The notes below the pieces were generated by a model. The model was not told where the DNA came from. It saw only the letters and a list, made by a program, of their open reading frames with translations, and searched no databases. From a virus (taxonomy: Duplodnaviria; Caudoviricetes), in IMG/VR virus record IMGVR_UViG_3300022752_000014: a stretch of DNA of 64,000 nt. One strand, 5' to 3'. Below, in pieces: positions 19,894-23,450 of the stretch. A program made the translations under genes and the position numbers. Numbering within the stretch: position 1 is the first letter of the stretch; every line of letters begins with the position of its first letter.

Positions 19894-20973
19894 ATGACTG
19901 CTTCAATCGCTCAACAACGACAATCGAATACTTGGGAACAATTCTGCAGCTGGATCACCAGCACCGATAACCGCCTTTATGTGGGTTGGTTCGGCGTTCT
20001 GATGATTCCTTGCCTGCTTGCTGCAACAATCTGCTTCATCGTGGCGTTCATCGCCGCTCCCCCTGTGGACATCGATGGTATCCGTGAACCCGTTGCTGGT
20101 TCACTCATGTACGGAAACAACATCATCTCTGGTGCTGTGATTCCTTCGTCCAATGCTATTGGACTGCACTTTTACCCCATCTGGGAAGCTGCTTCCCTAG
20201 ATGAGTGGCTTTACAACGGTGGACCTTTCCAACTGGTAGTCTTCCACTTCCTCATCGGCATCTATGCTTATATGGGTCGTGAGTGGGAACTTTCCTACCG
20301 TCTTGGTATGCGTCCTTGGATTTGTGTTGCCTACAGCGCACCTGTTGCTGCTGCTTCTGCAGTGTTTCTTGTGTATCCTTTTGGTCAGGGTTCTTTCTCT
20401 GACGCGATGCCTCTGGGTATCTCTGGTACGTTCAACTATATGCTTGTGTTCCAGGCAGAGCACAACATCCTGATGCACCCCTTCCATATGCTTGGAGTTG
20501 CTGGTGTGTTCGGTGGTTCTCTGTTCAGTGCTATGCACGGTTCTCTGGTTACTTCTTCTCTGGTTCGTGAAACCACTGAGAACGAGTCCCAGAACTATGG
20601 TTACAAGTTCGGTCAAGAAGAAGAGACCTATAACATCGTTGCTGCACACGGTTATTTCGGACGCCTTATTTTCCAATATGCTTCCTTTAATAACTCCCGT
20701 TCGCTGCACTTCTTCCTTGCTGCGTGGCCTGTTGTAGGTATCTGGTTCACTGCTCTTGGTGTTAGCACTATGGCTTTCAACCTCAACGGCTTCAACTTCA
20801 ACCAGTCAGTTATCGACTCACAAGGTCGTGTATTGAACACCTGGGCTGATGTTCTGAACCGTGCTGGTCTTGGCCTAGAGGTGATGCATGAGCGCAACGC
20901 CCATAACTTCCCTCTGGACTTGGCAGCTGCAGAAGCGACTCCAGTTGCTCTTACTGCTCCAAGTATTGGATGA
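19894..20973 (+). CDS. psbA: Photosystem II D1 protein (intronless; E130-type GREWEL)
   Basis: Full-length D1: [27 protein letters not shown] and [13 protein letters not shown]. Confidence 0.99.
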
Positions 20974-21322
20974 GTTTAGATAAAATCTGAACATTATCAC
21001 CTACTAATCCGAGAGCAGTGTTGCAATTATTACACAACACTCCTCGGATTTTTTCTGCAGTATGACAGTGGTCAATACATTTCTTTTCTGTAATGTCTCT
21101 GCCACATACTTGACAACTATCGTGCTTCATTAATTCTTGATACTCTGTCTCAGAAAGATTAAACTTTCTTCTCATGTATTCATGGGGTTTGTAATATTTT
21201 TTTCTTACTGATGTAGAACATTCTTTACATTTTGACTGGTGAGATATTTTTCCAGTTTTTAAAGTTCTCTTATGGAAATGATTAAAAGAAAGAGTTCTAT
21301 TACATACACTGCAGAGTTTCAT
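20951..21322 (-). CDS. Free-standing endonuclease VII-family (F-CphI-like) homing endonuclease
   Basis: N-terminal CxxC...CxxC Zn finger and C-terminal CQVC...IDHCH...[14 protein letters not shown]; late-type TAAATA on the minus strand at 21348-21353. Confidence 0.85.
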
Positions 21323-21362: not shown

Positions 21363-22424
21363 ATGGTTTCATCTACACTTTCACAACCAATTCAACAAAG
21401 GGGGTGGTTTGATGTCCTGGATGACTGGGTTAAACGTGATCGCTTCATATTTGTGGGTTGGTCTGGACTATTACTTTTTCCCACTGCTTATCTTGCCCTT
21501 GGTGGCTGGCTTACTGGCACAACGTTTGTTACAAGCTGGTACACCCACGGGTTGGCGTCTAGTTATCTTGAAGGGGCTAATTTCCTTACGGCTGCTGTGT
21601 CAACGCCTGCAGATTCTATGGGTCATTCTCTTCTTCTACTTTGGGGTCCTGAGGCTCAAGGGGATTTCGTCAGGTGGTTCCAACTTGGGGGACTCTGGCC
21701 TTTTGTGGCACTCCATGGGGCTTTCAGCCTGATTGGATTCATGCTTCGCCAGTTTGAGATTGCCCGTCTAGTAGGTATTCGTCCGTACAATGCGATTGCT
21801 TTTTCAGGTCCTATCGCTGTATTTGTATCTGTGTTCCTGATGTATCCACTGGGTCAATCTAGTTGGTTCTTTGCTCCCTCTTTTGGTGTCGCAGCAATCT
21901 TCAGGTTCCTTCTGTTCCTTCAGGGTTTCCACAACTGGACCCTCAACCCCTTTCATATGATGGGAGTTGCTGGTATACTAGGAGGAGCACTGCTCTGTGC
22001 CATTCACGGAGCTACTGTAGAGAATACACTTTATGAAGATGGTGATGCTTCAAACACTTTCAAGGGTTTTGAACCTACACAGGAAGAAGAAACGTATTCA
22101 ATGGTTACTGCAAACCGATTCTGGTCGCAGATTTTTGGAATTGCTTTTTCCAATAAGCGTTGGTTACATTTTTTCATGCTTTTTGTTCCCGTTATGGGTC
22201 TCTGGACTAGTTCTATTGGGATTATTGGTTTGGCTCTCAATCTTAGGGCCTATGATTTTGTAAGTCAGGAAATTCGTGCTGCTGAGGATCCGGAATTTGA
22301 GACCTTCTACACGAAAAATATACTGCTCAACGAGGGACTACGTGCTTGGATGGCTCCAGTAGATCAGATTCACGAGAATTTTGTCTTTCCAGATGAAGTT
22401 CTTCCTCGTGGAAATGCCCTCTAA
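21363..22424 (+). CDS. psbD: Photosystem II D2 protein
   Basis: [24 protein letters not shown] and VLPRGNAL; AGGAGG SD. Confidence 0.99.
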
Positions 22425-22435
22425 TATTATTTTTA

Positions 22436-22468
22436 TATAAATAGTATTGCGAGAGGCAATGCTACTAT
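22436..22468 (+). promoter_or_regulatory. Late promoter plus hairpin over the endonuclease RBS and start codon
   Basis: TATAAATA at 22436-22443; TAGTATTGC-GAGAG-GCAATGCTA stem at 22442-22464; ATG at 22467. Confidence 0.65.
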
Positions 22469-23033
22469 GGTTTGGAACAAAGGATTAAAAAATGACCCCC
22501 GATTAAAAGGGGGTCGTCCAAAATCAAGTCTCTCATATGTCGGTAAGACTTATGGGAGACTTACTATTTTGGAACAATATAGTCACAAAAAAAGTATAAG
22601 ATTTAAATGTCGTTGTGAGTGTGGAAATATTACTGATGTTCGCAAAGATAATTTAATAACAAAAGCAGATACTGTTTCTTGTGGGTGTAGATTGGAAGAA
22701 CTTCACCAAGAAAGAAGAGAAAAAGGTATTGATGAAGTTTCTGCTATGTGGTCTAGGGCAAAATATAGAGCAAGACAAAAGGGAATGGAGTTTACAATAG
22801 AACAAAAAGATATTATAATCCCAGATGCTTGTCCTTTACTTGGAATACCATTAGTTTTTCATAGGGGTAAAGGAAGTCAGCAGGGAAACTCTCCATCGTT
22901 AGATCGCATTGATTCTTCCAAAGGATACATAAAAGGTAATGTATGGGTTATCAGTAATAGAGCAAACACCCTCAAGAACGATGCCTCCCTACACGAACTT
23001 GAACTCCTGGTAGAAAACTTAAAGAAACTATGA
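22467..23033 (+). CDS. Free-standing HNH-type (His-Me finger) homing endonuclease
   Basis: GKTYGRLTI...CRCECGN...SCGC N-domain and CPLLGIPL...SLDRIDSSKGYIKGNVWVISNRAN nuclease domain. Confidence 0.8.
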   Translation: MVWNKGLKNDPRLKGGRPKSSLSYVGKTYGRLTILEQYSHKKSIRFKCRCECGNITDVRKDNLITKADTVSCGCRLEELHQERREKGIDEVSAMWSRAKYRARQKGMEFTIEQKDIIIPDACPLLGIPLVFHRGKGSQQGNSPSLDRIDSSKGYIKGNVWVISNRANTLKNDASLHELELLVENLKKL

Positions 23034-23158
23034 TATCTTCCACTACACCTTATAAACTCGCAGAGATCATTCGGGACACTTGGCCCAACCTTTACAGAAA
23101 ACCCCAAGTGCCCTATAATAAAGAAAAAGAACAGGATGATGAACAAGTACAACAGTGA
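23030..23158 (+). CDS. Small hypothetical protein (42 aa, MISSTTPYKLAEIIRDTWPNLYR...), not in the ORF track
   Basis: ATGA overlap with the endonuclease stop; fills the gap to the next gene. Confidence 0.55.
   Translation: MISSTTPYKLAEIIRDTWPNLYRKPQVPYNKEKEQDDEQVQQ
23091..23119 (+). promoter_or_regulatory. Sigma70-type promoter
   Basis: TTTACA, 17 bp, TATAAT. Confidence 0.6.
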
Positions 23159-23450
23159 AGACTATTTCACAGTAAGAGAAAGAAGGACTCATAAAAAAAT
23201 TTGTGATTGTGGTAATCTTGAAGATGCAAAAATGGTGATGAGTCTGGACATACCAAATCGTGAAGTTGTAAAAAACAAATCACTGATGAGTCCAGTGATT
23301 GATGTTGAGATACCCAAGGCACTACCAACAAATGAGATTGTGGTGAACATGGATGGTGGAGTTGGTGGTTCTTGGGAAGTCCGTGAACCAGAAAAACTTC
23401 CTCAAATCAAACTTCCAGAAGGACAAGGAATTCCAGTTAACGCTAAATAA
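23136..23450 (+). CDS. Hypothetical cyanophage protein
   Basis: ORF track; AGGA SD. Confidence 0.7.
   Translation: MMNKYNSEDYFTVRERRTHKKICDCGNLEDAKMVMSLDIPNREVVKNKSLMSPVIDVEIPKALPTNEIVVNMDGGVGGSWEVREPEKLPQIKLPEGQGIPVNAK

Follow-up and report, generated by a model that had tools for sequence, protein, structure and literature searches.

A late promoter placed inside a helix that masks the ribosome-binding site is a known arrangement in T4, where it has been described for the genes of I-TevI, I-TevII, I-TevIII and segB as well as for e, soc and 49, and in Aeromonas phage Aeh1, where it is found at mobE (PMC2988022, PMC3014915). Hairpins containing the late box TATAAATA have also been reported before free-standing endonuclease genes at 'fractured gene' loci in marine metagenomes (Dassa et al. 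2009, PMC2677866). In cyanophage S-PM2 a free-standing homing endonuclease, F-CphI, lies beside psbA (Zeng et al. 2009, cited in PMC2984593), and an antisense RNA of F-CphI, CfrI, has been described (Millard et al. 2010, cited in PMC2984593).

Here we analysed 64,000 nucleotides of viral DNA (IMG/VR record IMGVR_UViG_3300022752_000014; this whole stretch is referred to as the window), which form part of the genome of a T4-like cyanophage from fresh water. A reading frame of 188 codons, ORF188, follows psbD in this DNA. The design of the T4 lock is already known, and what is new here is its presence in another gene family. As with the T-even masks, ORF188 lies inside an earlier transcription unit and the regulated gene is a free-standing nuclease-like gene; in addition, a helix is predicted to cover the Shine–Dalgarno sequence and/or the AUG on the long RNA, and TATAAATA is placed so that the late RNA is predicted to start inside or after the 5' arm. 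Unlike the T-even cases, the host is a cyanobacterium, the neighbour is psbD and the system is known here from sequence alone. The ORF188 form is also very compact, with a 2-nt overlap between the box and the 5' arm and a late leader of 18 nt, it has two mutually exclusive predicted masks, one of which uses the last codons of the neighbouring gene, and its nuclease family is a different and uncharacterised one.

The loci of Dassa et al. resemble this one in that they are environmental phage-like DNA with a hairpin just before the endonuclease start, 10 of those hairpins including the late box (PMC2677866), and in that the 3' end of the endonuclease gene overlaps the start of the next gene, which in the window takes the form of an ATGA at 23030. 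In those loci, however, the split genes function in DNA metabolism (gp41, NrdA, DnaE and others), and the enzymes are Vsr-like or GIY-YIG and accompanied by split inteins, whereas ORF188 is of another family and the psbD in front of it is intact. For the Dassa hairpins no covariation had been shown across a large family; for the ORF188 leaders it was found. With F-CphI the locus shares a free-standing nuclease gene that adjoins a photosystem II gene of a T4-like cyanophage, and a relative of the F-CphI type is present in the window itself, as an Endonuclease_7 gene (8e-16) between psbA and psbD. ORF188 differs from F-CphI in having no detectable relation to this type, since hhalign of the ORF188 family profile against the Endonuclease_7 protein of the window gave a probability of 0.4%. 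The proposed control differs as well, being an antisense RNA for F-CphI in the work cited there and a late-promoter mask for ORF188. In a limited literature search we found no paper describing a late-promoter mask for a psbD-linked nuclease family.

Gene order around ORF188

The closest isolate to the window is Synechococcus phage DSL-LC02 (Kyanoviridae), and the DNA runs containing the stretch are lake, freshwater and estuary metagenomes. A T4-like core block is present in the window, with genes for a helicase loader, a single-stranded DNA-binding protein, and the baseplate and tail. The genes around ORF188 are the following.

19894-20973, + strand: psbA, from the gene order
20951-21322, - strand: Endonuclease_7 gene (Pfam, 8e-16), antisense between psbA and psbD and overlapping the psbA 3' end
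21363-22424, + strand: psbD (D2), a 353-aa ORF whose transcripts would read into ORF188
22467-23033, + strand: ORF188, a 188-aa ORF with its start codon at 22467, a probable endonuclease-like gene of the His-Me finger/HNH superfamily
23030-23158, + strand: a 42-aa ORF whose ATG overlaps the ORF188 stop codon (ATGA)

In blastn searches psbD matched the psbD genes of about 226 cyanophage records, and its stop codon is at 22422-22424. ORF188 lies downstream on the same strand, and no efficient terminator was called in the gap between the two genes; the sole terminator-like site there is a hairpin at 22442-22464 with a T-poor tail. The literature on other cyanophages describes psbD as being transcribed before the late genes. 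Contigs of four metatranscriptome runs (Logan) were compared with 21900-23400. They covered psbD, mostly with sequence of other organisms at 85-95% likeness, and were empty from about 22410 to 22920, and are uninformative on transcription or start sites either way.

At the psbD-adjacent site DSL-LC02 has other small ORFs and no ORF188, which is a presence/absence polymorphism, and it has a homologue of the 42-aa ORF. The linkage to psbD and this difference between the two phages support the view that ORF188 is mobile. In one homolog (P0047) the reading frame ends in the psbD C-terminus, VLPRGNAL, so that some genomes may carry a stranded end of psbD behind the nuclease gene. DSL-LC02 is also without the Endonuclease_7 gene of the psbA-psbD gap, and in the window this gene has CTAAATA, rather than TATAAATA, upstream of it.

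Two copies of TTTACA-17-TATAAT, each matching TTGACA-N17-TATAAT at 11/12 positions, were seen on the + strand at 22791-22819, inside ORF188, and at 23091-23119, just downstream of it. T4 endonuclease genes often embed promoters for downstream genes. Farther along, an 82-aa ORF at 27005-27253 matches PHROG 385 'transcriptional regulator', has no Pfam match, and sits where gp33 presumably lies in cyanophage genomes; gp55 was not found within the 64-kb window. The genes g55, g33 and g45 are present in all cyanomyoviruses (PMC2984593).

ORF188 probably encodes an endonuclease-like protein

A search of a metagenome protein collection returned 793 homologs of ORF188. The protein matches PHROG 3322 'endonuclease' at 1.4e-36, and PHROGs annotated as endonuclease, endonuclease VII or HNH match it at 1e-36 to 2e-12. 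Its language-model neighbours carry PF02945 (Endonuclease_7) or PF01844 (HNH), with scores of 0.87-0.90. No match was found in Pfam or NCBIfam, and searches of the PDB by sequence, with the single sequence or with a profile, gave none at E <= 10. The AF2 model has a pLDDT of 77 and a pTM of 0.47. For residues 87-188 of the model the top match in both structure searches was PacI (PDB 3ldy/3m7k), at weak scores (Foldseek E = 0.044, probability 0.92; VIA-align Z 6.2, rmsd 5.3 Å, 97 aligned residues). PacI is a rare-cutting HNH restriction endonuclease; its identity to ORF188 is 17-19%, with no match at sequence level, and a shared fold does not show a shared activity.

The family has a conserved block, SPSLD(R/K)I..KGY...N.W..S.RANTLKN, within which D146, Y154, N158 and N167 are invariant among 20 sequences, and it keeps four cysteines (C50, C52, C72 and C74). 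When the family was aligned to HNH_3-type motifs, by eye and not by computation, the position of the canonical His was occupied by R or K in 20/20 sequences. Collectively, these data indicate that ORF188 is probably endonuclease-like and a member of the His-Me finger superfamily. The first-pass annotation had called it an HNH nuclease; the label holds at superfamily level, given the PHROG matches, the language-model neighbours and the weak PacI fold match, but not more closely, given the lack of a Pfam or PDB sequence match and the R or K in place of the canonical His.

Codons 10-17 of ORF188 contain a GC-rich stem of 7-8 bp (GACCCCC...GGGGGTC; 22494-22515, + strand), preceded by an A-run and located 27 nt past the AUG. 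It is kept in relatives with the N-terminal extension MVWNKGL, where C-to-T changes give U-G on the sense strand. The model has a pLDDT below 50 for residues 1-18, and in shorter homologs the start lies just past this region. A scan had called a minus-strand terminator here, and we rejected this call on the grounds that the tolerated C-to-T changes leave a U-G pair in the plus strand where the minus strand would have A-C; as far as the sequences indicate, a sense-strand RNA stem is more likely.

A late promoter box is conserved before ORF188

The last codons of psbD and the region between psbD and ORF188 contain the following features.

22415-22431, + strand: 5' arm of a predicted long helix (last psbD codons, stop codon and first UTR bases), from folding of a 121-nt RNA
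22436-22443, + strand: T4-type late promoter box TATAAATA, an exact match, with comparative conservation
22440-22458, + strand: 3' arm of the predicted long helix, mutually exclusive with the local hairpin
22442-22464, + strand: local hairpin, with arms 22442-22450 and 22456-22464 and the loop GAGAG at 22451-22455
22449, + strand: predicted late transcription start, from the T4 box rule of -13 to -6 (PMC1524935)
22451-22456, + strand: Shine–Dalgarno-like GAGAGG, 10 nt before the AUG, from the sequence

The first-pass annotation had placed TATAAATA at 22436-22443, overlapping the 5' arm of a hairpin, and both points were confirmed from the sequence, the overlap with 22442-22450 being 2 nt. The number of boxes is by itself not above chance, with 3 exact copies in 64 kb compared to 4.1 expected. 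All 3 copies end 23-28 nt before the start of an ORF on the same strand, and of the two boxes elsewhere in the window, one stands before a baseplate hub gene (8.8e-81) and one before a head-closure gene (6.8e-60). Baseplate hub and head-closure genes are late genes in T4. Judging from the sequences compared, the signal comes from the placement and conservation of the box and not from its count.

We fetched 160 loci from IMG/VR and JGI metagenomes and counted 121 relatives, defined by a match that covers the N-terminus at an identity of at least 45% (47-100% amino acid identity) and by an intact 5' end. The box was kept in 112 of these 121, from lake, estuary and marine viral contigs, with 110 exact copies and 2 that read TATAATTA. 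In most relatives the end of the box lies 20-24 nt from the conserved ATG, the commonest distance being 21 nt, and the sequence between the two falls into unrelated classes, the leaders being otherwise without sequence relation. Nearly all distinct leaders (69/70) are directly behind psbD. Among the loci without a box, one was a truncated contig; the others were distant relatives that stand in non-cyanophage contexts and have ordinary AGGAGG sites. In relatives with a second box downstream, the psbD-adjacent copy is TAAAAATA and not the exact box. Only a box that directly serves the start of the nuclease gene is retained in exact form. In T4 the late promoter box occupies -13 to -6 (PMC1524935), which predicts a late start at 22449, inside the 5' arm; the range of 22448-22450 that had been expected beforehand agrees with this rule.

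A covarying hairpin adjoins the start codon

The arms of the local hairpin, TAGTATTGC (22442-22450) and GCAATGCTA (22456-22464), form 9 bp including one U45-G61 pair. The hairpin is the minimum free energy structure of a 61-nt piece at -12.1 kcal/mol (z = -2.9), and 3/200 dinucleotide shuffles equalled it. It had been described at first as a hairpin that encloses the Shine–Dalgarno sequence. The 9-bp stem is present, but GAGAGG is mostly in the loop and is enclosed yet unpaired. An alternative register proposed at the same time, ATAGTA (22441-22446) with TACTAT (22463-22468), does exist but is weaker by 3.7 kcal/mol (-7.5 versus -11.2 kcal/mol), and an extension that joins UAUA (22436-22439) to UAUG (22466-22469) is nearly isoenergetic at -11.1 kcal/mol. 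A search of Rfam with 22250-22650 gave no family at E <= 1.

To assess conservation of the stem we aligned 17 distinct leaders in which the local hairpin is present (A1); the stem has 10 pairs. All 162 of the 162 cells form standard pairs. Four pairs are changed on both sides (G-C to A-U, A-U to U-A and U-A to C-G), in 13 cells, and two positions of the sense strand alternate with U-G wobbles. The covariation score was 0.315 compared to a mean of 0.162 in shuffles, none of 500 shuffles reached it, and when the partner was slid by 1-3 columns only 20-64% of the cells paired. We regard this covariation as solid, though not overwhelming, because the double changes stem from few events and one clade carries three of them. 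Since U-G on the coding strand is an A-C mismatch on the other strand, a sense-strand RNA helix is favoured over a DNA palindrome.

A longer helix is predicted on the read-through RNA

When a 121-nt read-through RNA was folded, 22415-22431 was predicted to pair with 22440-22458 at a probability of ~1.0, and in isolation this long helix has an energy of -17.4 kcal/mol compared to -10.6 kcal/mol for the local hairpin. Its loop holds the first half of the TATAAATA box, and it pairs five of the six GAGAGG bases with CCCUCU. The predicted unpaired probability in the read-through RNA is ~0 for five bases of GAGAGG and ~1 for A22454, and GAGAGG is free in the predicted late RNA. These models indicate that the favoured fold on the read-through RNA is the long helix and not the 9-bp hairpin, and it is nearer to the textbook I-TevI layout than the previously proposed hairpin with the Shine–Dalgarno sequence in its loop. 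The long helix is without independent covariation: one leader (L082) breaks a pair, and the CTC/GAG match is found in one clade only. Complementarity to the psbD codons for (E)VLPRG was also observed in the leaders L101, L005 and L104, with duplex energies of -16 to -20 kcal/mol, and the 5' arm of the local hairpin resembles the (E)VLPRG segment of psbD.

The predicted cost of opening the region from -14 to +3 was 11.8 kcal/mol with 80 nt of upstream sequence compared to 3.4 kcal/mol in an RNA that starts at 22449. The former value is the second highest among 57 ORFs of the window (median 5.1, sd 2.5). For 30 leaders with the local hairpin the mean cost was 11.6 kcal/mol on the long RNA and 2.8 kcal/mol on the late RNA. 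RNAs that start at 22448-22450 keep 0-3 of the 9 hairpin pairs (two for a start at 22449) and none of the long helix. For some close relatives (L087, L011 and L089) the predicted mask falls to 5-6 kcal/mol because of an A/U-rich competitor.

Based on these results, we propose that ORF188 may be a mobile free-standing endonuclease-like gene behind psbD of T4-like cyanophages that brings its own expression control. RNA started upstream would read through psbD and fold over the ribosome-binding region in one of two ways. In the first fold 22415-22431 would pair with 22440-22458 and cover GAGAGG; the second, the local 9-bp hairpin that abuts the AUG, would form when ribosomes finishing psbD hold the long arm open, as a ribosome terminating at 22422-22424 would presumably do, and would thus serve as the fallback mask. 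ORF188 would be poorly translated from this masked RNA. Late in infection TATAAATA (22436-22443) would direct a gp55-type polymerase to initiate near 22449, and the resulting RNA, with both 5' arms missing and an open leader of 18 nt, would be translatable. The sequences themselves show the motifs and how well these are conserved, together with the covariation and the predicted energies; the use of the promoter, its start site, the effect on ribosomes and late-only protein synthesis are what we infer. A late-only translational mask on ORF188 is in our judgement probable. The T4-style design suggested in the first-pass annotation is supported in silico by the box, the covarying helix and a predicted start that removes the arm, all conserved across the family.

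Lock layouts differ among relatives

Three layouts were found among the relatives. Layout A is that of the window, with an overlap between box and local hairpin. In layout B, the classic T4 form, the whole of the 5' arm precedes the box and a Shine–Dalgarno sequence, GAAGG or GAGG, is covered by the 3' arm, with duplex z-scores of -3 to -6.5. This layout was seen in many contigs and in the cultured phage S-SKS1, where it is also directly behind psbD. Layout C, found in ~20 distinct leaders, has a terminator and a sigma-70-like TTGACT-N17-TATTAT before the box, and little or no mask. In L029, L033, L118 and similar leaders the TTGACT-N17-TATTAT lies ~40 nt upstream of the ATG and extends over the first base of the late box. 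Because this near-consensus promoter overlaps the late box, copies with the maskless layout may be expressed both early and late. Late-only translation is not universal in the ORF188 family, since ~20 distinct leaders have the box and little or no mask. The purpose suggested at first, avoidance of premature nuclease synthesis, may apply to ORF188; some relatives are without any mask.

In layouts B and C, a conserved TAAAAATA, which is one mismatch from the late box, and a small stem or its remnant follow right after the psbD stop codon. The TAAAAATA and stem of relatives with a terminator between psbD and the nuclease gene, seen within the 35 nt that follow the psbD stop in L029, L045, L116, L130 and ~30 other leaders and also at L001 3123-3150, resemble the box and hairpin of the window. 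A degenerate copy of this TAAAAATA-stem is found behind psbD in DSL-LC02, where there is no nuclease gene. For the psbD-adjacent TAAAAATA-stem three origins are conceivable: native target sequence, a relic, or one half, the first, of a two-box module. It is conceivable, though we consider it doubtful, that the mask is a two-state device in which the recoded psbD tail of the cassette is the anti-Shine–Dalgarno arm and the local hairpin the backup, and that the minimal layout of the window (box, arm, loop, arm, ATG) and the ~100-nt two-box modules with an internal terminator seen in relatives are stages of one portable element shared by unrelated cyanophage nuclease families.

Alternative explanations

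The stem could belong to psbD rather than to ORF188, as a 3'-UTR stem-loop that stabilises, processes or weakly terminates the psbD mRNA, with the box as an independent promoter and masking as an incidental effect. The pattern scan does list 22442-22464 as terminator-like, TAAAAATA with a small stem or remnant follows the psbD stop where the nuclease start is ~90 nt further on, and the nuclease-free site of DSL-LC02 has its degenerate copy behind psbD. We nevertheless find this explanation unlikely. The tail of the hairpin, CTATGGTTTG, is without a U-run. Between the psbD stop and the stem there are anywhere from 0 to ~11 nt, whereas the AUG and the box are in every case abutted or overlapped by the stem. 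Perfect pairing (162/162 cells) is found only where the stem abuts the start codon, most remnants away from it keeping 2-4 pairs as read by eye, and relatives with a real terminator after psbD still mask the nuclease start separately. An intrinsic psbD terminator as the main reading was rejected for the missing U-run and for a stem that tracks the nuclease ATG and not the psbD stop.

Another explanation keeps the mask and drops the promoter: if TATAAATA were unused, all ORF188 mRNA would be read-through and the helix would be a constitutive attenuator that keeps output always low. Three boxes in 64 kb are indeed no more than chance, and low, leaky expression is common for homing endonucleases (PMC2988022). 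What makes constitutive attenuation quite improbable is that 112 of 121 relatives retain the box (110 of them exactly) at a fixed distance in leaders of unrelated sequence, that two late structural genes of the window have this box in front of them too, and that in no relative does the complete helix lie downstream of the predicted start. The repeat could also act at the level of DNA, either as an operator bound by the nuclease, in the manner of I-TevI autorepression over its late promoter, or as part of the recognition site. I-TevI represses its own late promoter via an operator that resembles its homing site (PMC2988022), the repeat overlaps the box, and in some relatives, such as L101 and L005, the 5' arm resembles the 3'-terminal codons of psbD. 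The arms, however, differ completely between clades (GTATTACC versus ATTCTATC) with pairing kept, and the U-G wobbles are A-C mismatches on the other strand; both findings point to selection on the sense-strand RNA, and we give the DNA-level explanation very little weight, although an operator could coexist with the RNA helix.

Significance

The ORF188 lock reveals no new principle. It indicates that the T4 rule by which selfish nuclease genes are tamed, a late promoter inside a helix that masks the ribosome-binding site, is kept with clear covariation in a large uncharacterised family that is tied to psbD in freshwater and marine cyanophages. The finding supplies a concrete predicted start site, and S-SKS1 on Synechococcus WH7803 offers a cultured model. 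If the two-state reading were true, both the choice of promoter and the traffic of ribosomes on psbD would gate translation of the nuclease. The three lock layouts make up a natural series in which to study how a mobile gene can be accommodated in a host operon while an auxiliary metabolic gene there is left undisturbed.
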